This document shows positions 1 through 47,000 of a stretch of 50,211 nt of DNA, piece after piece (within the stretch, counting starts at the first letter, position 1; each line of letters opens with the position of its first letter). The DNA is from a virus (Duplodnaviria > Caudoviricetes): IMG/VR virus record IMGVR_UViG_3300021404_000018, positions 1 through 50,211 of that record; one strand, written 5' to 3'. The notes under the pieces were generated by a model that worked only from the letters and a program-made list of their open reading frames with translations, ran no database searches and was not told the origin of the DNA. The translations under genes and the position numbers were made by a program.

Positions 1-148
1 GGACGCCAATGGTTTGTGTGGTTTCGTGGTAGCACACCCGAGCCACATTCGAGCTGTCAGGTGTGTCAGTCCACTTCAAATCAGGTTGTGACATAGCCGT
101 CCCCTTGCTGTTGATAGAGCCCACGCTGACGTGGGTTCGACAAACAGT
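1..148. repeat. Terminal direct repeat, copy 1 (assembly circularisation overlap)
   Basis: Identical to 50064-50211 except position 22 (T) versus 50085 (G). It falls inside the KTSC gene and its leader, so it is probably not a biological terminal repeat. Confidence 0.93.
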
Positions 149-151
149 AAG
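104..151 (-). other. Imperfect ~22-bp hairpin, family B copy 1 (RNase III-like substrate?)
   Basis: Plus strand reads CTTGCTGTTGAT...GACAAACAGTAAG. The arms are complementary and homologous to 789-841. Confidence 0.55.
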
Positions 152-152
152 A

Positions 153-181
153 TGAGCCGTTTATAGACATGCTCAGGTCTA
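153..181 (-). ncRNA. H-type pseudoknot motif, family A copy 1
   Basis: Minus strand UAGAC-CUGAGC-AU-GUCUA-UAAACG-GCUCA. Stem1 is UAGAC/GUCUA and stem2 is UGAGC/GCUCA. Repeated at 570-650 and 49206-49233. Confidence 0.6.
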
Positions 182-187
182 AAGACG

Positions 188-448
188 TCAGGCGTCTTCT
201 TGGACGTTCAGCAGTTCCGCGTGATCGACCGCCGCGTCGCTGGTGATGCCCAACGACTCCAAGGTGCAGGTGTCGGGAACGGTCAGGGTGTCATAGTGGA
301 ACCCGTCGCCGTCCGTCCCGAGTTCGCCGCTCTCGGAGTTGTCCTTGGCCGCCAGGGCGTTCACGAAGTCCTCGTTGAACGTGTAGTTGGCCGAGTAGGA
401 CCCATCGCCGCCATCGGAGATGAGAACGAAAAGCTTCTTCGTGATCAT
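188..448 (-). CDS. Hypothetical early protein (86 aa, acidic)
   Basis: ORF with a GGAGA RBS and phage-like codon usage, co-oriented with its neighbours. Confidence 0.75.
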   Translation of the reverse strand: MITKKLFVLISDGGDGSYSANYTFNEDFVNALAAKDNSESGELGTDGDGFHYDTLTVPDTCTLESLGITSDAAVDHAELLNVQEDA

Positions 449-569
449 AGTGGTATCTCCCGATTGAGGACCATTCCTCAGGAGAACACACGCAAAGCAG
501 TCCCGTAGGATATGCTCTCACCTCATCCGCAATGCCGGTGTTGCAAACGTGTGTTCACCTCAAGAAAGG

Positions 570-650
570 TGAGCAGTTTTGCCAACCAACCTGGAGCTAA
601 CCAACGGGGCGGTGTTGGAAGGTCAGAAGGGTATTGCCATGCTCAGGGCA
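570..650 (-). ncRNA. H-type pseudoknot motif, family A copy 2 (with ~55-nt insertion)
   Basis: Minus strand UGCC-CUGAGC-AU-GGCA-[insert]-AAAACU-GCUCA. Stem1 shows a compensatory change relative to the other copies. Confidence 0.55.
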
Positions 651-653
651 CGA

Positions 654-682
654 GTGACGCCCAACAACGGGTGTTGAGCATC
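654..682 (-). other. Conserved hairpin, family C copy 1
   Basis: Minus strand GAUGCUCAAC-loop-GUUGGGCGUCAC forms 10 bp with two G-U pairs. The arms are identical to 49830-49855. Confidence 0.6.
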
Positions 683-788
683 CATGCACGAGTTCCGCTA
701 TGGGGGGACGTAGCTGCCACTCGCACATCACAACTCACACGTCAAAATAGACCCAACCTGCAACAGAGGGGCCAACAGGAGCGACGTG

Positions 789-841
789 CTTGCTGTTGAT
801 GAAGACCAACCAAAGCTGAGTTGATCTTGATAAACGGCAAG
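789..841 (-). other. Imperfect ~22-bp hairpin, family B copy 2
   Basis: Plus strand reads CTTGCTGTTGAT...GATAAACGGCAAG, homologous to 104-151. Confidence 0.55.
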
Positions 842-869
842 AGTGTCCAGATATTTGGACGAAAACACC

Positions 870-899
870 ACGCCACCAGCCCCGAAGGGCCAGTGACGC
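870..899 (-). terminator. C(UUCG)G-capped hairpin 3' of the 234-aa gene (terminator or mRNA stabiliser)
   Basis: Minus strand GCGUCACUGGCCC-UUCG-GGGCUGGUGGCGU, followed only by a weak U tract (GGUGUUUU). Confidence 0.5.
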
Positions 900-912
900 A
901 GCGCTTGCGGTC

Positions 913-1617
913 TTACTTGGACGCTTCGGCGACTTCCAGTTGCGCCTTGGCGAGCTGGTCGCGCGCCTGATAGACGTCCTTGGTGCTGTCGTTCCAGGCC
1001 ATCACCTCGCCCAGCGACTTGTCGAGCCCGTCGAAGAACTCTTCCATCTTGTCCAGATGGATGCCGTCGTAGAAGGGCTTCTTGATGTCCTTCGGACGGG
1101 GCGGCTGACCGGGTTCGAGCAGAGTGTTCTCGATGGCCGCCCGATATTCGCGGATGGCCCGCTCGACCTTGGAGGTCAGGTTGTCGCGGAACACGGGCCG
1201 AACGGCCAGCATTTCCCTCGCAGAGGCGAGGCTGGTGAACGGCGTCGTGTTGGCCTCCTCGATCTTGAAGGGCCGGCGTTCGCCGTCGATGGTGCCGCTG
1301 AGCGTGATGTTGTCGCCCTTCAGTTCCATCGGGCTGAACGCCCGCATCCAAGCGATGAGGCCCTGACGACGGTAGCCCGACTTCGCGTCCACGATATCGA
1401 CGAGAAGACGGCGCATCAGGGACGTGTCGCCGTGCTTGTCGGCGTGCAGAAGGCACTGCACCGCATTGGCGTGAATGCGAGCATCCAGCTTGATCAGGCT
1501 GACACGGATGCCGTCCTGATCCTTCTTGATGACCGACTTCTCCAACAGGGAGGGCAGACCTTCGACAGCCGTGGATTGCACGACGGCCAGTTCGCCTTCA
1601 ACTTGAGCAGTAGTCAT
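913..1617 (-). CDS. Hypothetical early protein (234 aa)
   Basis: Long ORF with strongly biased codons and an AAGGGA RBS. No family recognised. Confidence 0.85.
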   Translation of the reverse strand: MTTAQVEGELAVVQSTAVEGLPSLLEKSVIKKDQDGIRVSLIKLDARIHANAVQCLLHADKHGDTSLMRRLLVDIVDAKSGYRRQGLIAWMRAFSPMELKGDNITLSGTIDGERRPFKIEEANTTPFTSLASAREMLAVRPVFRDNLTSKVERAIREYRAAIENTLLEPGQPPRPKDIKKPFYDGIHLDKMEEFFDGLDKSLGEVMAWNDSTKDVYQARDQLAKAQLEVAEASK

Positions 1618-1643
1618 GATTAGGTTCCCTTATAGGTTCCATC

Positions 1644-1673
1644 CAGCGTTAGTGCTGGGATAACCCGCCGTGA
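1644..1673. repeat. 30-bp inverted repeat, arm 1
   Basis: 26/30 identical to the reverse complement of 1950-1979. Confidence 0.85.
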
Positions 1674-1675
1674 AC

Positions 1676-1927
1676 CTAACTTGCGAGCTTAAGACGCCGC
1701 TTGGGCGCTCTTGCACGACGATCCCGAAGGATCATTTCAGAGATTGTGCGCCCCTCTTGAACATTGAAGGGCTGAAGATGACGTATCGCCACCCAACCCC
1801 CTTTGAGAGGCGAGGGCAGCGATGCGACGAAGAAGTCACAGACACTCTCGGACACGAAAGGCCCGAAGTAGAGTATCTTGGACACTTTGCTGTCTTTGAA
1901 GCCTACGAAGTATTGCGTTGGTTTCAT
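1676..1927 (-). CDS. Hypothetical basic protein (~83 aa) enclosed by the inverted repeat
   Basis: ATG at 1927 preceded by AAAGGTG; the ORF track starts it at GTG 1939. Confidence 0.65.
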   Translation of the reverse strand: MKPTQYFVGFKDSKVSKILYFGPFVSESVCDFFVASLPSPLKGGWVAIRHLQPFNVQEGRTISEMILRDRRARAPKRRLKLAS

Positions 1928-1949
1928 CGCTGTTAACACCTTTCCGGCC

Positions 1950-1979
1950 TCACAGCGAGTTACCGCAGCACTAACGCTG
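1950..1979. repeat. 30-bp inverted repeat, arm 2
   Basis: Partner of 1644-1673. Confidence 0.85.
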
Positions 1980-2083
1980 CGTTCTGACCCATAGGTCCAC
2001 CTGTTCCCAAAAGACTTGGGTAACGGACAGAATTTCCCGGCTGGCCAGCGCTATTCATTCACGGATGCCATTACTGACAGCCG

Positions 2084-2230
2084 CTATTCTACGGCGAATA
2101 GCTTTTCTTGGAGGGTTGCTGCGTCTTCGCTACAGCTTGCTAGTGCTGCGTTGCGAATAGCCCCGATTGCTCTGGCCTGTTCCGGCTCACCCGGACTTAG
2201 ACGGTAATCGAGTACCTCCGACCGACACAT
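2084..2230 (-). CDS. Small hypothetical protein (48 aa, MCRSEVLDYRLSPGEPEQ...)
   Basis: Translated by hand. AGGT RBS before the ATG; below the ORF-track length cutoff. Confidence 0.4.
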   Translation of the reverse strand: MCRSEVLDYRLSPGEPEQARAIGAIRNAALASCSEDAATLQEKLFAVE

Positions 2231-2400
2231 GGTTACCTATCCCATGCATCTCACCAAGGCCCTAACAATGACACTCATTTGCACGGCTATTCGTCTAACC
2301 CGCAGCGATTGCTGAAGGCTTCGACTACTCGCCACACGAGCGTCACCAAAGGTGCGTATGCCCTTGGCCGGGTCCAGAACGGACCTCGTTTCAATATGAG

Positions 2401-2438
2401 ACAGCCCGACGCAACCCCGAAGGGTCACGCCAGTCTGT
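2401..2438 (-). other. C(UUCG)G-capped long hairpin 3' of the first early gene
   Basis: Minus strand ACAGACUGGCGUGACCC-UUCG-GGGUUGCGUCGGGCUGU, with several G-U pairs that form only on the minus strand. Confidence 0.55.
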
Positions 2439-2446
2439 TTTGCCCC

Positions 2447-2713
2447 TTACTTGGAGCCAAAGCGGTTCTTTGTGCCGGGACGTTGCACCTTGAGTTGGCC
2501 GCGAACGACCTTCCCCGGTTTACCACGTCCCTCCCAATAGGCCGGGCGAGGGGTCGCGTAGCCTGACAAGTGAATGACAGGCGACAGCGCGGACCTAACA
2601 CGGCCCTGTTGGAGTTTGCCAACATCGGACGCGTTGCCGTACTCTGCAAGGTCACGCCTAAGCGCGGCTTGCTTCGCTAGCAGACGCCGATGCGGGTTGA
2701 GGCGCTTGGACAT
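2447..2713 (-). CDS. Hypothetical highly basic protein (88 aa), first early gene
   Basis: AAGGAG RBS, directly downstream of the leftward promoter. Confidence 0.7.
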   Translation of the reverse strand: MSKRLNPHRRLLAKQAALRRDLAEYGNASDVGKLQQGRVRSALSPVIHLSGYATPRPAYWEGRGKPGKVVRGQLKVQRPGTKNRFGSK

Positions 2714-2790
2714 GCCAAGGCTCCTTCCGCGAGGGGCTACAGGCGGTCCAAGGGACCTGCCCGACTGGACCTATATGACCCAGTAACATC

Positions 2791-2819
2791 ATCCTACCAG
2801 GGCAGAGGGGCATGGTCAA
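2791..2819 (-). promoter_or_regulatory. Sigma70-type leftward (early) promoter
   Basis: TTGACC-17 nt-TAGGAT with an extended -10 TG. Confidence 0.65.
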
Positions 2820-3030
2820 CGTGAACGTAGGGTGAACATGAGGCATGATCTTGTTATGTTGTTATCGTTTATCGATATGTGGGGGCATATTCATGCTTTG
2901 CGACTCACTCGCAAGTGCATCTGCAACCGGGGGGTGTACGGGGGGGCCATGAAACCGAGGGTTGCAATCACGTTATTTAGGCTGGGTGGGTTGTTACATA
3001 AAAAAGTAAGCGTTCTCGTGTTTTTTGTGC

Positions 3031-3059
3031 TTGACTTGGGGGCGGGGAAATACTATAAT
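3031..3059 (+). promoter_or_regulatory. Sigma70 consensus promoter, rightward 1
   Basis: TTGACT-17 nt-TATAAT. Confidence 0.8.
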
Positions 3060-3185
3060 ATCTATAAAGAGGTTACATCTTAAAGATACAGATAAATATG
3101 ATAACAATATACTAATCTCTAAGAGGTACATTATAAGGTACATAGAGGTTTGGTTGTCTCATTCGCACCCGCAGGGTGTGGGAGC

Positions 3186-3214
3186 TTGACTTTGCATCTC
3201 CAATCGGGTATAAT
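3186..3214 (+). promoter_or_regulatory. Sigma70 consensus promoter, rightward 2 (upstream of terS)
   Basis: TTGACT-17 nt-TATAAT, 27 nt before the terS start. Confidence 0.8.
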
Positions 3215-3241
3215 GTAGTTAGTAGGGTAATGGAGTCCTGA

Positions 3242-3781
3242 TTGGCTTACCTAAGTATTAAAGACGACCGCATCGAATCCAACGCGTACACTGGCCGGAA
3301 GCTCACCCCCAAGATGCTTTCGTTCATTGACGCGTATTTTGGTGCGGCCAATTTCAATGCGCTCCGTGCCATAGAGCTTTCAGACTACAATTGCAAGACC
3401 AAGCACTCCATTCATCAGACAAGCGCCGAGTTGATGAACCACCCACTGGTGAAGGCCGAGATTGACAAGCGGCTCGCCAAGCGGGAACAGAAATCCGAAG
3501 TCAAAGCCGAATACCTGATCAACAAGCTTATCGAGATCATCGATAACCTGGGAGAGTCAGAGAAGACCGCTGACAGGCTTCGGGCAATCGAGCTGGCAGG
3601 TAAGGCCATCGCGCTCTGGAAAGAGCGTCAGGAGGTCACTGGGGCCGACGGCGGGGCCATCCAGCACGAACAACATGTAAAGGAATCCGTTGCAGACTTC
3701 ACCAGCCGAATTTCTAGCCTCGTTAAGCGAGGAGGAACGTCTAACGTTGTTAGCTTCCCTGAGCGAGGAGGAACAGGCTGA
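3242..3781 (+). CDS. terS: Terminase small subunit
   Basis: N-terminal LTPK..FIDAY....N...A helix-turn-helix pattern, RAIELAGK and EVTGADGGAI motifs. Lies before terL; TTG start with a GGAG RBS. Confidence 0.85.
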   Translation: MAYLSIKDDRIESNAYTGRKLTPKMLSFIDAYFGAANFNALRAIELSDYNCKTKHSIHQTSAELMNHPLVKAEIDKRLAKREQKSEVKAEYLINKLIEIIDNLGESEKTADRLRAIELAGKAIALWKERQEVTGADGGAIQHEQHVKESVADFTSRISSLVKRGGTSNVVSFPERGGTG

Positions 3782-39317: not shown

Positions 39318-39472
39318 TAATCACCAACATCATCTAAAAGCAAAATGATTTCGATGATAGCTTTCCGCACATGAAGACCGACACTACCTGATGAAGGCTT
39401 CTTTGCCAATTCTTCATCAAGGATTTTGTCCCATCTCGTCAAAGCGTTACGCTGCTTTATTGTGAGCTTCAT
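39317..39472 (-). CDS. Small hypothetical protein (51 aa)
   Basis: MKLTIKQRNAL...; fills the gap after thyX. Confidence 0.5.
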   Translation of the reverse strand: MKLTIKQRNALTRWDKILDEELAKKPSSGSVGLHVRKAIIEIILLLDDVGD

Positions 39473-40091
39473 AACCGATTGCCTTCGCGATCTCGGGGAA
39501 CTCACGCAGGATGATCTCACGAGTTTGCTCAGCGATCAGCCTGTGTTCCTTCTGTGTTTCCGGGGCACAACGAGCGTCCCAATAGTGTATCCAGTTGCGG
39601 AGGTAACCGTTAACATAAATCTTGGTGGGAACGATGCCCTCAGGAAGTATCTTGCGGGCCAGTTCCTTTGCGATACCGCGCTTAAGTGCAGCTTGGTACC
39701 AAAAGTAGCAGAAGTCCCAGACCATCAACTGAACAGCGAACCACCAGGAGTGCAGGTCTCGGTCTTCGATTTCAATAGAGTTCTGTCGGTTCTTGTCGTC
39801 TTGGAGACGAGCTTCGCTGAACACGGGATTGTTTTCGTACTCAGCGTAGCGACCCGAGAACTCTTGGAACTTGAACGAATGTCGGAGGAGTTGCCTAATG
39901 ATGTCACGGGTGGAGTTAATTTCCACACAGGCGTTGACCATCTCGAAGGGCGACCAATGTTTCTTCCGCAATAGGAAATTGATCAGCCGAGATGTGGGGT
40001 CCTCAGGCTTTGCTTCAGGGTTCGAGACCCGAGCGAGGAACCCAACCAACTTGTCGCCTTCTGGCGTAGCCCAAATCAGTTTAGTCGTCAT
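39447..40091 (-). CDS. thyX: Flavin-dependent thymidylate synthase
   Basis: ARVSNP, HWSPFEM, RH-SFKFQEFSGRY, ELARKILP, TQKEHR. Confidence 0.93.
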   Translation of the reverse strand: MTTKLIWATPEGDKLVGFLARVSNPEAKPEDPTSRLINFLLRKKHWSPFEMVNACVEINSTRDIIRQLLRHSFKFQEFSGRYAEYENNPVFSEARLQDDKNRQNSIEIEDRDLHSWWFAVQLMVWDFCYFWYQAALKRGIAKELARKILPEGIVPTKIYVNGYLRNWIHYWDARCAPETQKEHRLIAEQTREIILREFPEIAKAIGYEAHNKAA

Positions 40092-40233
40092 CAAATTCCT
40101 TGTCTTCCGGTTCTTCGAAATCGGCCACGCACTCGGCGATGATCGCCAAGCAGACGGGGCATGGCCCAAAAGATTGTGTTGCCCTGTCGAATTGAATTTG
40201 ATCGTCCTGCTTGTCGCAGATGTAACAGTGCAT
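40081..40233 (-). CDS. Small Zn-finger protein (50 aa)
   Basis: CYIC...CPVC with an acidic tail. Confidence 0.65.
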   Translation of the reverse strand: MHCYICDKQDDQIQFDRATQSFGPCPVCLAIIAECVADFEEPEDKEFDDD

Positions 40234-40234
40234 C

Positions 40235-40411
40235 CTAATGCTTTCCCTTGTACAGGCAGACCGTGTAATGCTTAACCGGGAGTGGGGCCGCAGCGATGGC
40301 CTCTTCCGGACTGTCGAACTTGTCCGCCTCCATGGGATCAACACAGCTTCCGAACATCGCGGAAGACTTAACGAGAAGACCAGAGTTGTTGTGGCGTAGG
40401 TAGTATTTCAT
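40235..40411 (-). CDS. Small hypothetical protein (58 aa)
   Basis: Hand translation MKYYLRHNNSGLLVK...; TAATG overlap. Confidence 0.6.
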   Translation of the reverse strand: MKYYLRHNNSGLLVKSSAMFGSCVDPMEADKFDSPEEAIAAAPLPVKHYTVCLYKGKH

Positions 40412-40821
40412 TACAGCTTCCTGTCATGCGCGGGGAAGTTGTCGTCCATGAAGTCCTGAACGAACTGACGTTCCGCTGCGGGAAGGGTTTGGCTCATGTT
40501 GTGGAGACGGGTGCGAATGGCCTTCTCCTGGTTGTACGGATCAGGAAAGAAGTCAACGATGTTGTCACAGCGCTTCATCAGCTCGCTCTGACGAGTGGCC
40601 GAAATGCCCCCAGGGACGGGGAACAGAGGAACAACAGTGCCCTCAGTGGGCTTCGCGGGCAGCACCGGGCCGATGGGCTTCGGGCTGTACCGGAACGACA
40701 CGAACTGACCGTAGATGCGTTGCTCCACAGCGTAACCGTACTTGTTGCAAAGCTTGGACTCAAGATTGAAGGGCAACCCCGGCTTGAACTTGAGCACCCT
40801 GAGGCTGGGCTTACTGGGCAT
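40411..40821 (-). CDS. Hypothetical protein (136 aa)
   Basis: ATG at 40821 with a GGAG RBS, overlapping the ATP-grasp stop. Confidence 0.7.
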   Translation of the reverse strand: MPSKPSLRVLKFKPGLPFNLESKLCNKYGYAVEQRIYGQFVSFRYSPKPIGPVLPAKPTEGTVVPLFPVPGGISATRQSELMKRCDNIVDFFPDPYNQEKAIRTRLHNMSQTLPAAERQFVQDFMDDNFPAHDRKL

Positions 40822-41563
40822 TGGCGAGTTTCTCCAAGGCGTTTGCGTACGCTTCGACTGTTTGTCCTTCAAGCCCGGGCGCAGTATTGACTTCCAGGAC
40901 ATACAGATTTCCCTTCTTGTCTTCAACGATGTCAACAGCGCCGAAGTCCAGCCCGAGGGCCGCGACTGCGCTGATGGCGAGCTTGTCCCGAGCTTCGCTG
41001 GGTTGAATGTTGTTACGCTGAAAGATGAAACCGTTCGCATGGGAGCGAACCTTCCAAGACAAAGGCTCTTGGTCGGGGTCGCGAACCTTCCGCTGAGTGT
41101 CAATGACCTCAGTCTGAGTTGCGTGAACCCGGAACTCTTTGGTCTTGAAGATGTACTTGGTATAAAGAGGAGCCGTGGGTAGCTCGTCATTCTCTTCAAC
41201 TATAACGATACCATCACCGGAGTGTCCTGTCAAGACATTCCGGACAACAATCGTGTTGCCCTTAGCTTGCCATTCCAGAGCAACCGCCTTGTTCTGGGTC
41301 CACGGAACGGTGTCGATGTCCTCACCAGCGAGAGCTGTGAAAGTGTAAATCTTGTTAGAGGCGATGCCAACGGCGGCACAGTTGTTCAGGACCTTCTTGA
41401 AGGCCATAGTGTTGTTGTCTTTGCCTTTGGTCGTGCCCCAGTTCACCAGAACATCGTCCGGCTTGAAGCTCTTGCCCGTCACAAAACGTCTGAACCCCTC
41501 TCCTTGAGAGAGTTCCTTCGCGCTGTTGGACGGGCGTCCTCCGGTGTAAATCCAAATCTTCAA
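40811..41563 (-). CDS. ATP-grasp peptide ligase (RimK/YheCD-like)
   Basis: NWG, GHSGDGI, EFRVH, LDFGAVDI, YVLEVNTAPGL; TTG start overlaps the upstream TGA. Confidence 0.9.
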   Translation of the reverse strand: MKIWIYTGGRPSNSAKELSQGEGFRRFVTGKSFKPDDVLVNWGTTKGKDNNTMAFKKVLNNCAAVGIASNKIYTFTALAGEDIDTVPWTQNKAVALEWQAKGNTIVVRNVLTGHSGDGIVIVEENDELPTAPLYTKYIFKTKEFRVHATQTEVIDTQRKVRDPDQEPLSWKVRSHANGFIFQRNNIQPSEARDKLAISAVAALGLDFGAVDIVEDKKGNLYVLEVNTAPGLEGQTVEAYANALEKLANAQ

Positions 41564-42438
41564 CGGCGAGACCTTTCCGTCCAGGTGGAGCAGTAAGCGA
41601 GGTCTTGGGCGACCCGCATACCGTCCATCAGCATGTTCTCCATGCCAGGGATCGAGAGATATTTGTGGGAGAACGGGCCAAGGGCCAACTTGAGGAATTC
41701 CCGGGGACCACGCGAGCTGAACTGCCGGATGATCTCGGTGGGGTTGGTGTACGTCTTGGCGTGCTGCTTGAGATAGTCCAGCGTGCCAATCCAGTGCATC
41801 AGACGGCCCTCGTGCGTGGTGCACTCAAGCGACCTGAACTCGATGGACCCGAACTTGGTTAGGGAAGTGAAGTTGATCGAGCTGTAACGTTCGGCATTGC
41901 CGCCGAGTTGGAAGAATTGGTGACCACCCTTGATCGAGTTGGTCAGCATCAAGACCTGACCTAGAGCGTCCTTAGCCCGGAGACAGAAGTTGTTGCCAAC
42001 CCGGTGCTCACCGTTCTGGCTCACGAACAGCTCGTCAAGGATCAGAGCCAGTGTGATGAAGTTGTAGATGGTGCGGAGCTTCTCCGTCCCAAAGTTAACG
42101 TGGACGTGAACGGACGTCCGGTACGAGTTGTACACCTTCACCGTGGGTTGGTTCAGGTAGTCGAACAGCGTGGTGACCGCTTCTCTGACCTTTTCCAACG
42201 GCATCGGAGAACGGCACACGAACTCGTACGCATCGTCGCCGGGCTTCAGTTTGCGCAGCGAGTGGTCGTCGATGATGTTCCAGAAAGCGTCCACGGCGTG
42301 AGTGATGTTGCCGAGGTTCTTGCCCTCCACCTCAACCTCGACGCCGAAGCTGTCAGGGTTGTTGAGAGCTTCCCGCTGGATCGGGATGTGATCGGAAAGT
42401 CGCTGGTTCAAATCCATCAGAGCAGTGTATTGGTGCAT
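41560..42438 (-). CDS. Putative amidoligase (Amidoligase_2, glutamine synthetase-like fold)
   Basis: FGVEVEVEG, DHSLR, YEFV, RTSVHVHVN, RYSSIN, GSIEFR. Confidence 0.88.
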   Translation of the reverse strand: MHQYTALMDLNQRLSDHIPIQREALNNPDSFGVEVEVEGKNLGNITHAVDAFWNIIDDHSLRKLKPGDDAYEFVCRSPMPLEKVREAVTTLFDYLNQPTVKVYNSYRTSVHVHVNFGTEKLRTIYNFITLALILDELFVSQNGEHRVGNNFCLRAKDALGQVLMLTNSIKGGHQFFQLGGNAERYSSINFTSLTKFGSIEFRSLECTTHEGRLMHWIGTLDYLKQHAKTYTNPTEIIRQFSSRGPREFLKLALGPFSHKYLSIPGMENMLMDGMRVAQDLAYCSTWTERSRR

Positions 42439-43041
42439 CTAACCCAATGCCTCGTAGAGGGTTTCCTTGAGATATTCGGCTTGTGGGACCAGAACGACAG
42501 GCGTCTTACCACCCACAATACCGATCCCGTTTGCACGATAATAGAGAGGATACGTCTTGTCCTCAGCCTGATAGCCAAGGGCAAAGTCGCGATGCCAAGC
42601 CGCCGTGTGCGCTTTGCCGTCACGCACTTGCTTCTTAGCTTCCTCGAAAGAGGTGTAGTCGTTACGCAACATACTAACATAGCTCTTGTTAAATTGAAAG
42701 CCCGCCTTCGGGTTCACTCCCCAATCTCCGTTAAAGAACCGGAGTTGCTCGGCCTTAAGACCTTGCTGGTACTGCTTGGCGGGACGTCGGTACCACCACG
42801 TAGCAATTCCGGCATGATTGGCATAGCCGATGTTGTAATCCCGATAGCGGAACTGAGGATCGTGAAGATCAACGATCTCAGATGGCTGGTTCAGAGCCGC
42901 GACGGACAGACGAAACGCCTTAGCATCGTCGTCGTCGTGGAAGGCCGTCTTGACGTAGACTGGTTCGTCCTTGTAGTAGCAGATCGTGCCGACGAACTTG
43001 GCTGTGACGTCGTTCAGATTGTCGAACTTAGGCAGCGGCAT
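42439..43041 (-). CDS. Hypothetical protein within the ligase cluster (200 aa)
   Basis: ORF tightly packed between the two ligase genes. Confidence 0.8.
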   Translation of the reverse strand: MPLPKFDNLNDVTAKFVGTICYYKDEPVYVKTAFHDDDDAKAFRLSVAALNQPSEIVDLHDPQFRYRDYNIGYANHAGIATWWYRRPAKQYQQGLKAEQLRFFNGDWGVNPKAGFQFNKSYVSMLRNDYTSFEEAKKQVRDGKAHTAAWHRDFALGYQAEDKTYPLYYRANGIGIVGGKTPVVLVPQAEYLKETLYEALG

Positions 43042-43864
43042 GGAAAGGCAGCGGCTCCAGGTTCAGATCGCACCAGCCGAATTCTTCCGGCCAGTCCGTC
43101 TTGTTGTTGTCGATGACGTCCCTGGCGATGTCGCCATAGGTGTCCTCGGCCCACAGACCGGCGAAACCATCGGCGATGGCCGTTTGGAGGGTGTTATAGA
43201 CCCAACGCATCAGAGGTTCGCTGTCAAGCCAGCGGTTGGAAAGAACGCGGTACTCCAGGCCGTACGACTTGGGACGGAACGCCCCGGCCTTGCCGTACAG
43301 GGACCGGCGAGTGCCGTCCTTGTCCCAGAACAGGGAGTACATCCCGAGGTAGTAATCGAGCTGCCGAGCGACCTTGCAGCACAGCTTGAAGTGCTCGTGG
43401 TCTTCCGGGTCGAAGCCCTCACCCCAGCCGATGTGAAGATGGCCGCTGGCGGTCCGCATCGGTTCCCCTTGTGGGTCCGGGCGGGGGTTCACGTCCTCGG
43501 TCCAGCCGTTGAAGTCGGGCATACAGCCCAGCTCTTGCGCCGAAGACGGGACCTCGAACTTGAAGTAGTCCGCGTTGAAGCGGGCCACGGGCTCGGCGAC
43601 CACGTTGTAGCCGGGAACCATGTCCACCAGCGATTGGCGAACGGCGTGAATGTGATGAACGAACTCGTCAACGGACGTGGCGGGGTCGATGTTGAACTCC
43701 AGCGCCGTGCCATCGACTTGCACAGCGCCGTAGGGCACCTTGAACGGCTCCCACTTGGTTCCGGGGATGCGATCATGGGCGGAAACGAAGTCACCGTTAT
43801 CCGGGTGACGCATGAAGAGTTCGGGATCAGCGCCCACGAGGACGCGATTGGCAGTCACTTGCAT
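43028..43864 (-). CDS. phiEco32-like COOH-NH2 ligase type 2
   Basis: GADPELF, QVDGTALEFN, GCMPDFN, RTASGHLHIG, RRSLYGKAGAFRPKSYGLEYRVLSN. Confidence 0.92.
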   Translation of the reverse strand: MQVTANRVLVGADPELFMRHPDNGDFVSAHDRIPGTKWEPFKVPYGAVQVDGTALEFNIDPATSVDEFVHHIHAVRQSLVDMVPGYNVVAEPVARFNADYFKFEVPSSAQELGCMPDFNGWTEDVNPRPDPQGEPMRTASGHLHIGWGEGFDPEDHEHFKLCCKVARQLDYYLGMYSLFWDKDGTRRSLYGKAGAFRPKSYGLEYRVLSNRWLDSEPLMRWVYNTLQTAIADGFAGLWAEDTYGDIARDVIDNNKTDWPEEFGWCDLNLEPLPFHAAA

Positions 43865-43873
43865 CGGAGTTCC

Positions 43874-44965
43874 TTATGCAACCCACTTGGTGTATTCGTA
43901 TGTGTCAACATCATTGTAACAATCTTCACAAGCGTAAGGAGTATGTTTGTCGATGTGGTGGCCCATCACCTTGATGAACTCACCCCAATTTTGACCGTTC
44001 GCACCGCAAAAGCAGCAGCCTTCTTGCACCATCTGGCTGAAAGCGTCTTTCTTCAGGACCTTGCCACTGATGTCCTTGTACGGAGGACGAAACTTCTTAG
44101 TCGAAGGGCGGGCCATAAAAGGGATTTCGTTGTCCATGTAGTCGCCATAGGCGTAGTCGGTGGAACGAGTGTCCTTCACACCACGCCAGACGGTCGTTGA
44201 ACCCCAGTTCGCGGAGTGCCAGGTCTGGCCTTTCATCTCCACCCGCTCGGGGCTGTCGAACTGTGTCGCGATGGACTTGGGGATTTTCCACGAGTAGTGA
44301 GTGTCCGCCGTGACACTGAAGATGCCGGTGGCACCCTCCTCGGCGGGGATGAACATCTCCTTGTTCCGGCGCGACATAACGTATTCGAGCATCTTCGCTT
44401 CAGACGCCCAGATCAAAGTGCAGCGATCCTTACTGTAGCAGTAGTGCAAGGGGCGAGCGGAGTTGCGCAGGAAGTTCAGGGTGCCGTCCCGTTTGTCGTA
44501 CCAGATCAGGGCCCAAGCGCCGGCGATGATCTCCAGCGTGGCCTTGGCACCGATATCGTTAATCGATGCGAAGATGGCCTCGCTGTCCGTGCCGTACTTC
44601 TCATAGTCCTTGAGCCGCTTCAAGGCCCAGGAGTCGAGGGTGCCGTTGTGCATCCCCACGACATGGCTGAACTTGAACGGGTGGGCGTTAGCCTCGTTCT
44701 TCTCGCCCACGGTGGCGTAGCGGTTGTGGCCGAACAGAGCCTTGACCGAATTGTTCGTCGCGGTCATCTTGTCATACGCCGCTGTGGCGAACAGCTCGAA
44801 CGGATTGCCCGGCCTCTTGGCCAGCTCAAAGATGTCCTTCTCGCGGCTGATCGAGGCTGCGCCGGTGGAGTGCGTACCACGAACGCTGTCCACCATCAAC
44901 AGTTCAGTGAAAAGGTCTTTCCAGGTGAGGTTGCAGTCGCCTGCAATGCCGACTAGTCCGCACAT
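43874..44965 (-). CDS. Class II (Ntn) glutamine amidotransferase with a C-terminal Zn finger
   Basis: MCGLVG (Cys2), RG.HSTG, GHNRYAT, HNGT, TDSE; CCFCG...CEDC. Confidence 0.92.
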   Translation of the reverse strand: MCGLVGIAGDCNLTWKDLFTELLMVDSVRGTHSTGAASISREKDIFELAKRPGNPFELFATAAYDKMTATNNSVKALFGHNRYATVGEKNEANAHPFKFSHVVGMHNGTLDSWALKRLKDYEKYGTDSEAIFASINDIGAKATLEIIAGAWALIWYDKRDGTLNFLRNSARPLHYCYSKDRCTLIWASEAKMLEYVMSRRNKEMFIPAEEGATGIFSVTADTHYSWKIPKSIATQFDSPERVEMKGQTWHSANWGSTTVWRGVKDTRSTDYAYGDYMDNEIPFMARPSTKKFRPPYKDISGKVLKKDAFSQMVQEGCCFCGANGQNWGEFIKVMGHHIDKHTPYACEDCYNDVDTYEYTKWVA

Positions 44966-45330
44966 TAAAGTTCAGTCCTCAGGTCTTCGAAATAGACGGA
45001 GTAAGGGATATCACCCTTATAGGAAACGACGCCCCACTTACGCACATCACCTTCTTCTTGGTGAATGGCGATTAGTGTACGGGGCAAAGTATTGTCGGCG
45101 TACAGTTTGTTACGCCCCTTCGTGTAAACGATATCGCCGACCTTCGGGATAGGTGGCGGAGCCGGAATGATCTCGTTAATTCGGTTGATGCTAATTGAGT
45201 GCATGAACCGACCAGGAGAGTCACAGTCAATGAAATTGAGCTTCAACGTGTCAAATGAACCCGACTTATCAATATCAGCCACAATGGCATGAAGAATAAC
45301 TTTGTCGCCTACCTTAGGCAGTGGCAACAC
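44965..45330 (-). CDS. Hypothetical protein with two PKVGD (KOW/SH3-like) repeats
   Basis: LPKVGDKV and IPKVGDIV. Confidence 0.65.
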   Translation of the reverse strand: MLPLPKVGDKVILHAIVADIDKSGSFDTLKLNFIDCDSPGRFMHSISINRINEIIPAPPPIPKVGDIVYTKGRNKLYADNTLPRTLIAIHQEEGDVRKWGVVSYKGDIPYSVYFEDLRTEL

Positions 45331-45973
45331 GTTGCGTCTCCTTCTGGTAGTGGCGGATCAGCTCGATGCTGAAGTCCGCAAAACGGGAGCCGGGGATGTA
45401 TTCGGGATGTCCCTGAATGCAAAGAGTGGACGTCTTGGGGTACCAGACGATCTCCGTGTCCTTGTGGTGATCGTCGTAGCGGAACTCGGGGAAGTGAGCA
45501 CGTTCGGCGTCCTTCCGCGTGGCAACATCAGCATAGCCCAGCACGACGCCCTCAACACTGGGGCGCATCATCTGGTGGTGCGTTGACGTCACCTCCATCT
45601 GCTCGCCTGTGGGCAGGAACGTCATGAGGTGCGACTGGCCGTGATTGTTCACGTCCTGCCACAGCGTGCCGCCGTTGAGACAGTTGAGAAGCTGAGCCCC
45701 ACGGCAAATCCCCACCTTGAGAACGGCTGGGTCGTGGAACTTGGTGAACACACCGATCTCAGTGGTGTCCCGCTGAGACTGTTCTTCGGGAATGAAACGG
45801 CTGATGGGCTTCTCGCCGTAAATCTTAGTGCCGATGTCAGCACCACCGTTGAACACGATCACCTCGGCGAGTTCCGGGTTGTCCACCGAAGTGAAGCCCG
45901 CCTCTTCGAGTAGTTCCTTCATGCCAGGGTCGGCACCGAAGCGAGTGATCGAATGAAAGGTGATGCTAGTCAT
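45314..45973 (-). CDS. Class I glutamine amidotransferase (peptidase C26 / PuuD-like)
   Basis: GGADI, GICRGAQ (Cys nucleophile), STHHQ, QGHPE (His-Glu); start reassigned. Confidence 0.9.
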   Translation of the reverse strand: MTSITFHSITRFGADPGMKELLEEAGFTSVDNPELAEVIVFNGGADIGTKIYGEKPISRFIPEEQSQRDTTEIGVFTKFHDPAVLKVGICRGAQLLNCLNGGTLWQDVNNHGQSHLMTFLPTGEQMEVTSTHHQMMRPSVEGVVLGYADVATRKDAERAHFPEFRYDDHHKDTEIVWYPKTSTLCIQGHPEYIPGSRFADFSIELIRHYQKETQRVATA

Positions 45974-47000
45974 CATCGTCGAAGTCAGGGAAGTCGTATT
46001 CATCAATGTCCCAATCCGGGGGTTGAGGAGGTTGAACGGGAGCAGCATCGATCTGCTGTGGGAAAACGGGAGGAATGGCATTAAGGTGAACACCACCAGC
46101 CTGCTGATTGGCGATGATCTGAGCCCACGCACCAGCCAAAGGCTGAGGCATAGGATCAACCGCAGGAGCCGCTCCGACCATCTCGTCGTGAATGGCTTGA
46201 TGAAGAGCCTGCCCAGCTTCAATGTCATAAACGTACTTCTTCATCAAACCAGCCTCAGGCGTGAGCCGCTTGCGAGGCTCGGGCTTGGGCTTCAGCTTGA
46301 TGTCAAAAATCTCACCCACCTGACTGTCAGTCAGACGAGCCAACTTGTAGTGAAGATCAGACTTGCCCCAAATCACATTGGCTGGTGTTGTGTTCCAAGG
46401 TGCGTCCCTGAAACTCTTCACCGTCAGATCGGGTGAACCGGCTAGCAGTTTGTGCCAGTCGGCAGCCGGATCGAACCAGAAATGATTGTGGCACGGGAAC
46501 TCGCGCTCCTTCTTGAAGGGCTTGCCAGCCGTGCTGTACGACAGCAGAAAAGAAAAGAACTCCGGATAGCCCTCTTTGACCAGCTCTCTCCAACGCTCGA
46601 AGAGATACGGATACTCGATGGGCACACGGCTAGCAATGCAGAAGTTGAACAAGACATTCGCCGGCCACTTGTCCAGGTGATCCACCTGAATGTAGTAGTC
46701 GTGTTTGTGCTTCTTCAAAGTGATGAGATCGCCGAACGCCCTGAACGGGCCGTGGATGAGCATCCGAATGTAACGTATACTGATCTCGTCGCGCATCGGC
46801 ATGGCTGTGACCAGATGATCATAACCAGCACTGTGGAACCGCATGTCGGCGTGGCACACGGACGCGAGCCGAAGTTTCGGGGGAATGCCCGTATCTTCAG
46901 ACCAAACAAACCAAGACGAGGGAGCAAGGTCCGTCAAGCTTGGGTAAGAAGCGATTAGTTGAAGTAACTCTTTCTCGGGGGGATTGATTTCGTCTGCCAA
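45966..47000 (-). CDS. Hypothetical protein (344 aa), first gene of the ligase operon
   Basis: TTG start with an AAGAAGG RBS downstream of the promoter; Pro-rich and acidic C-terminus. Confidence 0.8.
   Translation of the reverse strand: MADEINPPEKELLQLIASYPSLTDLAPSSWFVWSEDTGIPPKLRLASVCHADMRFHSAGYDHLVTAMPMRDEISIRYIRMLIHGPFRAFGDLITLKKHKHDYYIQVDHLDKWPANVLFNFCIASRVPIEYPYLFERWRELVKEGYPEFFSFLLSYSTAGKPFKKEREFPCHNHFWFDPAADWHKLLAGSPDLTVKSFRDAPWNTTPANVIWGKSDLHYKLARLTDSQVGEIFDIKLKPKPEPRKRLTPEAGLMKKYVYDIEAGQALHQAIHDEMVGAAPAVDPMPQPLAGAWAQIIANQQAGGVHLNAIPPVFPQQIDAAPVQPPQPPDWDIDEYDFPDFDDDD

Follow-up and report, generated by a model that had tools for sequence, protein, structure and literature searches.

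A conserved long-range RNA helix encloses a small protein-coding gene in the predicted early transcript of an uncultured soil phage

Introduction

Long-range helices as processing structures are textbook knowledge for ribosomal RNA (rRNA), the leader and trailer sequences of rrn operons pairing around 16S and 23S rRNA in helices that are cut by RNase III. The RNase III sites known from phages, by contrast, are local hairpins between genes, including those of the early mRNA of the T7 group (R0.3, R1.1 and others) and of the N leader of phage lambda. Here we describe a conserved, covarying helix of about 30 nucleotides (nt) per arm that encloses a whole protein-coding gene at the start of the leftward (minus-strand) gene block of an uncultured soil phage, represented by the complete 50,211-bp IMG/VR virus record IMGVR_UViG_3300021404_000018 (Duplodnaviria; Caudoviricetes), the whole of which was analysed and is referred to below as the window. 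In a limited literature search, no earlier description of such conserved stems around genes of phage early operons was found.

As in the rrn helices, the sequences flanking a whole unit pair and loop that unit out, with a length suited to RNase III and with covariation between the arms. The phage helix differs in enclosing a protein gene of ~0.25 kb rather than an rRNA, in having an outer half that can refold into two local hairpins, and in lacking a boxA-like signal upstream (the E. coli consensus TGCTCTTTAACAA had 18 matches in the window at up to 3 mismatches, none of them in 1980-2790). Like the T7 and lambda sites it would lie in a host-polymerase early transcript, and it shares with them a position directly upstream of an early gene and an irregularity at the helix centre; a cut would likewise leave hairpins at the RNA ends. 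The family of the gene directly downstream, P0002, is also an early gene in T7-like phages, one of which, Cd1, has a local hairpin at the same place. The T7 and lambda sites are nevertheless local hairpins between genes, whereas the stem described here holds 205-690 nt with one or two genes. A further parallel is the fold-back (fbi) of hok-type mRNAs, in which a 5'-3' helix closes a small single-gene message; unlike those mRNAs, the phage element encloses a protein that is no membrane peptide and has no known antisense partner, no search having been aimed at one, and its helix lies inside a predicted polycistronic transcript instead of at the mRNA ends.

Pairing over hundreds of nucleotides within one mRNA has also been described, in part recently, in two reports on cellular messages. 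Long-range intramolecular duplexes across such distances are RNase III targets in B. subtilis mRNAs (PMC11780869), and the two ends of the single-gene icaR message pair, with RNase III involved (PMC3868564). In icaR the paired region includes the Shine-Dalgarno sequence, and translation is repressed; the phage helix leaves both ribosome-binding sites free. Both of these examples are cellular mRNAs, whereas the phage element is a conserved phage module.

A single long-range helix around one gene

The helix, the gene that it encloses and the gene that follows it are located as follows.
1949-1979, minus strand: 5' arm of the long-range helix (1950-1979 plus one G-U pair at 1949), from repeat search, fold and covariation
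1644-1674, minus strand: 3' arm of the long-range helix, from repeat search, fold and covariation
1676-1927, minus strand: enclosed gene P0001, 83 aa, YFGPFVS-motif family, function not assigned (family alignment, AlphaFold2, profile search)
913-1617, minus strand: downstream gene P0002, 234 aa, phrog_1448, function not assigned (family search)

The arms at 1644-1673 and 1950-1979, 30 nt each and 276 nt apart, are 87% (26/30) complementary. Read as minus-strand RNA they form a helix of 26 Watson-Crick and four G-U pairs, one of the latter being an added 31st pair (1674/1949), interrupted by one C-C mismatch (C1965/C1658); plus-strand RNA makes 26 pairs and four mismatches over the same 30 positions. 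The first-pass annotation of this stretch, made without database searches, had reported an inverted repeat matching at 26/30 as DNA and 29/30 as minus-strand RNA, with three of the four DNA differences becoming G-U pairs on the minus strand only. The repeat search and the pair count agree with it throughout, all four differences being true mismatches on the plus strand.

The minimum-energy fold of minus-strand RNA from 1995 to 1630 includes the helix, at -160.1 kcal/mol (z -7.75, 0/100 shuffles as good), and the plus-strand fold is weaker (-131.2 kcal/mol, z -4.42). A scan of both strands of the whole window for gapless helices with a loop of 100-1300 nt found no other helix that scored at least 17; this one scores 25.5, and the maxima in six mononucleotide shuffles of the window were 14.5-17.0. 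The helix is real and is more than chance would give. Rfam returned no match at gathering score across the whole window and none at E <= 1 in 1500-2900.

Conservation and covariation among relatives

The 234-aa protein P0002 has 249 relatives at E <= 0.001 in a large protein collection. An alignment of 28 members of its family was used to find loci on 20 viral contigs and 18 metagenome contigs, a scan of a genome collection for the same family giving no locus; together with one locus found earlier and the window itself these make up the 40 loci compared here. Both arms are present in 35 of the 40, as a long-range helix ending just upstream of the P0002 homologue. On three short contigs the 3' arm motif is present and the place of the 5' arm lies beyond the contig end, and two loci are without upstream sequence. 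With or without its partner on the contig, the 3' arm thus immediately precedes the homologue in 38 of the 40. Every locus with enough upstream sequence has the element, and no empty sites were found. Removal of identical copies left 22 distinct full elements, with loops of 205-690 nt and a helix length of 25-35 bp in all 22.

Because the MAFFT alignment (A3) places a gap of five columns in the 5' arm of the window, pairs were counted in a gapless register of our own, with the 22 elements anchored on the conserved outer motif. Of the 572 cells in a core of 26 positions 537 are paired, against 30-48% when the 3' partner is slid by 1-3 positions, and no column shuffle out of 2000 reached 537 (mean 398.6, standard deviation 6.7), although binomial and shuffle figures overstate the significance because the related sequences are not independent. 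Pairing is also retained where the sequence is not conserved: the inner 14 positions are paired in 283 of 308 cells versus a shuffle mean of 183.5, and several of them show four or five different standard pair types. Non-Watson-Crick pairs in the core comprise, on the coding strand, 32 G-U at 12 positions versus 3 A-C at 2 positions, and the corresponding count in the detected helices is 41 versus 1. An A-C on the coding strand would be a G-U on the other strand, so the mismatch pattern is strand-asymmetric. The minimum-energy fold retains 23-33 of the 25-35 arm-arm pairs in each of the 22 elements, and in each it beats the best fold without these pairs, by 2.6-30.1 kcal/mol.

On account of the covariation and of the 32:3 asymmetry between G-U and A-C, selection appears to act on the coding-strand RNA, and we consider this to be, very probably, a conserved RNA element under strand-specific selection. 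The earlier proposal that RNA pairing is selected rather than a DNA site, which had been made from the window alone, is thereby borne out across 22 relatives.

The arm pair occurs once per genome, and the window holds no further copy. A scan of viral contigs with the arm motif gave 27 loci, with two inverted copies only on a relative that was already known; the 26 single matches are close to the number expected by chance on a rough estimate. One relative, L004, carries three further helices on its coding strand between 996 and 2176, abutting at intervals of 2 nt and each with one small open reading frame (ORF) inside.
996-1023 and 1250-1277 of L004, plus strand: first abutting helix, 26/28 paired
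1280-1306 and 1684-1710 of L004, plus strand: second abutting helix, 26 Watson-Crick pairs and one G-U over 27
1713-1737 and 2152-2176 of L004, plus strand: third abutting helix, 25/25 paired
A terminator-like hairpin follows these helices at 2490-2537.

A central mismatch and refoldable outer halves

The helix is divided into an outer 13 bp that are conserved in sequence (CGUUAGUGYUGCG) and an inner 12-13 bp that vary and covary. Three features lie at or outside the junction between them.
1965, minus strand: C1965 facing C1658, the central mismatch, where the conserved outer half meets the covarying inner half (pair count); region of the predicted cleavage
1964-1981, minus strand: local 5' hairpin CGCAGC-GUUAGU-GCUGCG, made by flank bases 1981 and 1980 and the outer 5' arm (span-limited fold)
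1643-1658, minus strand: local 3' hairpin CCAGC-ACUAAC-GCUGG, made by the outer 3' arm and flank base 1643 (span-limited fold)

In 16 of the 22 helices the centre holds a true mismatch immediately 3' of the GYUGC element, at +4 to +8 counted from the G of GYTRC; of the 27 mismatches in total, 19 fall at three neighbouring central positions. The outer half of either arm can form a local hairpin with a few flank bases outside the long helix, and these hairpins end at the central mismatch. Equivalents were found in 20 of the 22 rows, at -6.6 to -12.9 kcal/mol on the 5' side and -6.1 to -9.7 kcal/mol on the 3' side, the other two rows being mis-anchored in the local-hairpin folding. The 5' flank covaries with the arm (GCAGC/GCUGC, GCAAC/GUUGC, GUAAC/GUUAC), for which the long helix alone offers no explanation and for which a refolding step would account. 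The central mismatch and the refoldable outer halves are new anatomical features found in the present analysis.

The enclosed gene and its protein family

The helix surrounds a whole functional unit: the ribosome-binding region, the ORF and the stop codon of P0001 all lie within the loop. The 22 nt between the 5' arm and the ATG (1927) bear a purine-rich AAAGG, start codon and purine-rich stretch lying 9-22 nt outside the arm, and 2 nt separate the stop codon from the 30-nt arm; an alternative GTG start at 1939 would extend the protein to 87 aa. A check of the ORF and the sequence thus agrees with the first-pass annotation, which had placed the ribosome-binding site and the 83-aa ORF in the loop with the stop 2 nt from the arm.

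A loop ORF with the motif [FYT]GP[FY][VA][ST] is encoded on the coding strand in 20 of the 22 elements and on the opposite strand in none. L042 has a variant (IGPFAS) in the DNA alignment, and L004 has just one short, doubtful ORF in the loop of its element. The proteins of this YFGPFVS family are 57-106 aa long and align well around the motif. Between their stop codon and the 3' arm there are 1-20 nt in 19 of 20 elements (38 nt in L057), and in the short-loop forms the start codon follows the 5' arm by 9-25 nt. Seven elements (L032, L040, L048, L049, L056, L057 and L067), with loops of 412-690 nt, carry another ORF of 51-91 aa in the loop ahead of the motif gene, so the stem tolerates gene insertion. 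The idea that relatives might carry the same arms around different cargo genes did not hold, the same protein family being enclosed in at least 20 of the 22 elements, with one extra ORF in those seven.

A profile search with the P0001 family reached 81 cluster representatives at E <= 0.001 and a word-index search found five relatives, a back-translated pattern search finding none; neither Pfam nor PHROGs gave a match to P0001 at E <= 0.1. The AlphaFold2 model has a mean predicted local distance difference test score (pLDDT) of 91.8 and a beta-beta-alpha-beta-alpha fold with a basic tail, which suggests a conserved, soluble and confidently folded protein. Fold searches with this model gave no significant match, the best PDB hit having an E of 1.1 and the best viral matches, to uncharacterised phage proteins, an E of ~0.03.

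A proposed processing mechanism

The best-supported mechanism, to which we assign a probability of about 0.55, is an RNase III processing stem with refolding ends. RNase III is favoured because the helix length of 26-35 bp and the central mismatch fit such a substrate. For E. coli, the ideal substrate of this enzyme is described as a 22-bp duplex of twofold symmetry that is cut at its centre, and mismatches or loops at the target site as allowing single-strand cuts, the resulting 3' ends being determinants of stability (PMC3867540). Every one of the 22 elements offers the two helical turns of mostly regular double-stranded RNA that the 22-bp criterion calls for. The transcript on which the helix would lie begins with the following features.
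2791-2819, minus strand: sigma-70-like promoter TTGACC-17-TAGGAT, with TG before the second hexamer (promoter scan)
2447-2713, minus strand: first gene of the predicted transcript, an 88-aa basic protein with an arginine-rich N-terminus (MSKRLNPHRRLLAKQAALRR...) (tblastn)

From the anatomy described above we infer cleavage, the enzyme, the position of the cut, the refolding and its stabilising effect. A leftward early transcript starting from 2791-2819 would carry the 88-aa gene, a leader of ~470 nt and then the helix, whose arms would pair and loop out the YFGPFVS-family gene. Host RNase III would cut both strands near C1965/C1658 and yield three products: an upstream leader RNA, whose 3' end could refold into the hairpin at 1981-1964; a small-gene mRNA, with ends clamped by the inner 12-13 bp; and an mRNA led by the 234-aa gene, whose 5' end could refold into the hairpin at 1658-1643. 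Immediately after the cut, an outer half-duplex of ~14 bp would hold the upstream 3' end to the downstream 5' end until refolding of the outer halves let the products separate, and the terminal hairpins on the flanking RNAs may then slow exonucleases and the 5'-end-dependent RNase E.

Three metatranscriptomic runs (X1-X3) hold parts of 1-3300 in the form of contigs only, and the libraries may contain DNA. X1 contributes contigs at 573-1640 and 1982-2775, the X3 contig starts at 1990 and the X2 contig spans 1917-2770. Beside the predicted promoter all three runs have contig ends, at 2775, 2770 and 2747. At the helix they stop just outside the 5' arm (1982 in X1, 1990 in X3) and just outside the 3' arm (1640 in X1), which is a weak hint of processing. 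No loose ends at the helix were reported in these contigs, and no joints that would indicate inversion, splicing or circles were listed, contigs being a form of data from which rare molecules drop out; within that limit, the circular RNA that had been suggested from the sequence finds no support. No weight is given to stretches that lack cover in the RNA runs (2776-3490, the greater part of 1641-1981 in X1 and, in every listed piece, the 3' arm), and the depths of the X1 contigs (49.6 at 1982-2775, 20.3 at 573-1640 and ~4 between), being one figure per contig, are not used as evidence.

A number of points weigh against RNase III processing. No cleavage has been observed, and contigs cannot show RNA ends. 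The X2 contig reads through the 5' arm into the loop, no listed contig covering the 3' arm; if it derives from RNA, uncut or differently cut molecules exist. The contigs end at the outer base of the helix, ~18 nt short of the central cut that the model predicts, so that poor recovery of the terminal hairpins has to be assumed, and the hint they give presupposes a DNA run that continues across the helix, whereas the DNA-like run X4 has no contig there. The RNase III criteria used here are those of E. coli, and those of the host, including any antideterminant base pairs, may differ. The conserved outer 13 bp (CGUUAGUGYUGCG) are not explained by RNase III alone and might be a binding site for another factor. 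The statistics of conservation, too, are to be read with the non-independence of the sequences in mind. The reading that still fits best is a stem at which RNase III would part the small gene from the 234-aa gene, with cleavage as its inferred step.

Alternative explanations

The most serious alternative, which we consider unlikely yet worth keeping in view, is that the helix works uncut, either as a clamp joining the ends of the small-gene message or as a switch between the local hairpins and the long helix. A clamp would bring stop codon and ribosome-binding site together, shield the message or keep its folding separate from that of its neighbours, and in the icaR mRNA of S. aureus translation is controlled by pairing of the 5' and 3' untranslated regions (PMC3868564). 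In a switch, ribosomes translating the enclosed ORF would break up the inner pairs, a notion that fits the stop codon at 1-20 nt from the 3' arm in 19/20 elements, where a terminating ribosome should melt those pairs; the start codon at 9-25 nt from the 5' arm in short-loop forms and the conservation of both local hairpins as alternatives to the outer half of the helix also speak for it. Yet the long helix is favoured energetically in 22/22 elements (by the 2.6-30.1 kcal/mol given above) and neither Shine-Dalgarno region lies within it, and a regular duplex of 26-35 bp is, by the 22-bp criterion, an expected RNase III substrate, so that staying uncut would require antideterminants. Cutting at the base of the helix on both sides, releasing the whole stem-loop, would agree with the contig ends: those of X1 (1982 and 1640) stop 1-3 nt outside the local hairpins and the helix, and that of X3 stops 8 nt further out. 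RNase E acting beside the stem, or a protein binding the hairpin loops GUUAGU and ACUAAC, the sequences of which are conserved, would be candidates. Since contigs cannot show RNA ends, and with no known enzyme tied to the motif and no Rfam match even at E <= 1, we regard cutting at the base as improbable.

The two remaining explanations are less probable still. The arms could act as DNA, that is as a recombination or inversion site, as looping operators or as terminal inverted repeats of a mobile cassette, and the outer 13 bp of both arms, conserved and partly palindromic (GCAAC-N7-GUUGC), do resemble the site of a dimeric protein, just as the extra ORF between the arms in 7/22 elements might suggest a cassette. 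Such a role is very hard to reconcile with the 32:3 ratio of G-U to A-C on the coding strand, with an inner half that stays complementary though it has no conserved sequence, with a motif ORF that is on the coding strand in 20/22 elements and on the opposite strand in 0/22, with one copy pair per genome and no other in the window, and with a viral-contig motif scan that gave one inverted pair (on a known relative) and 26 single matches at about the chance level. The least probable explanation, in our judgement, is a fold-back like that of type I toxins, raised in the first-pass annotation, in which 5'-3' pairing would silence a toxic gene for as long as the RNA is unprocessed. One small ORF closed in by a 5'-3' helix does recall hok-type mRNAs, but the enclosed protein is conserved, 57-106 aa long and modelled at a pLDDT of 91.8, and is not a short hydrophobic peptide; the ribosome-binding site lies outside the helix, leaving the start signals unhidden; and the -10/-35 match at 1936-1909, within the ORF and on its own strand, scores only 9/12. 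A folded soluble protein family with its Shine-Dalgarno sequence outside the helix gives that proposal no support.

Genomic context and layout of the early region

The record comprises a plus-strand block of packaging and structural genes, beginning at 3242, in which the small and large terminase subunits were identified and another ORF is taken as a putative portal from its position and size alone, and a minus-strand block with genes for replication and nucleotide metabolism (family A DNA polymerase, DnaB-like helicase, ribonucleotide reductase and a thymidylate-synthase homologue) and a cluster of glutamine amidotransferases and amide ligases. No T7-type RNA polymerase was seen among the window ORFs scanned, and no close DNA relatives of 900-3300 were found among deposited phages. 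At 39447-47000 on the minus strand the thymidylate-synthase homologue adjoins two glutamine amidotransferases, a COOH-NH2 ligase, an amidoligase and an ATP-grasp enzyme. Enzyme sets of this kind go with DNA base hypermodification in some phages.

The promoter at 2791-2819 is the likely start of the leftward early transcript. It is followed by the 88-aa gene (2713-2447), by ~470 nt without a convincing ORF, by the helix with its gene and by the 234-aa gene (1617-913); both arms lie downstream of it on the same strand, and no terminator-like site was found on the minus strand between it and the helix. Divergent from it, two near-consensus sigma-70 promoters (TTGACT-17-TATAAT, 11/12) occur on the plus strand at 3031-3059 and 3186-3214, in an AT-rich gap upstream of the small terminase gene. 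Two further features belong to the same predicted transcript.
2132-2149, minus strand: hairpin gcagc-ACUAGCAA-gcugu with conserved loop ..UAGCAA, in the same leader as the helix
1618-1641, minus strand: conserved leader of P0002 (UGGAACCU...AAGGGAACCUA...AUG), from the 3' arm to the start codon (alignment)

The 88-aa protein has no Pfam or PHROG match and gave tblastn matches at E <= 0.003 in 9 of the 21 other upstream regions; it recalls N-type antiterminators. In 15 of the 22 relatives a hairpin with the loop (GAU)AGCAA and a variable, covarying stem precedes the 5' arm by 100-165 nt; it could be a boxB-like protein-binding site.

On the downstream side the helix ends 26 nt before the start codon of P0002. 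The leader UGGAACCU..AAGGGAACCUA..AUG, in which GGAACCU occurs twice, is conserved nearly letter for letter in the distant relatives L061 and L063. Short inverted repeats on a common motif (…TGTGTTCTC..GAG… / GAGCACACA) occupy the spacer downstream of the 234-aa gene in the window (470-492/548-570) and in many relatives (L004 4887-5962, L032 6303-6695 and others), and one contig of RNA library X1 ends at 573, beside the copy in the window.

In cultured Autographiviridae (RSB1, Cd1, Paso and P. putida phages) distant homologues of P0002 stand first or second among the early genes. No gene-enclosing helix was found upstream of the homologue in the four of these phages that were examined, and end-repeat matches in RSB1, considered as a long-range helix, were rejected as GT-rich low-complexity sequence. 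In Caulobacter phage Cd1 (L071) the ATG of the P0002 homologue is preceded, at a distance of 31 nt, by a local hairpin (1385-1479) with ~23 bp and a 49-nt top. By analogy this hairpin looks like a T7-type RNase III site, and its geometry appears to be that of the helix element minus the gene in the loop.

Significance

What distinguishes this element is that a whole protein-coding gene lies inside a conserved, covarying stem of a predicted phage early transcript, and that the design suggests that one cut could separate three messages and protect their ends. A bolder and distinctly tentative interpretation, more doubtful than RNase III processing itself, is that of a self-resolving processing cassette, in which a central cut would let the outer halves swap partners and cap the flanks, the inner half would close the message and the loop would be a protected slot for extra genes; taken with the abutting stems of L004, this might point to widespread strings of rRNA-like excisable units in early operons. 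If processing is confirmed, the element would be a compact natural part for tuning the stoichiometry and stability of genes in an operon, a marker of early-region boundaries in uncultured phages and a defined RNA family that is absent from Rfam. It would also tie the expression of two conserved early protein families, YFGPFVS and phrog_1448, to a single RNA structure.

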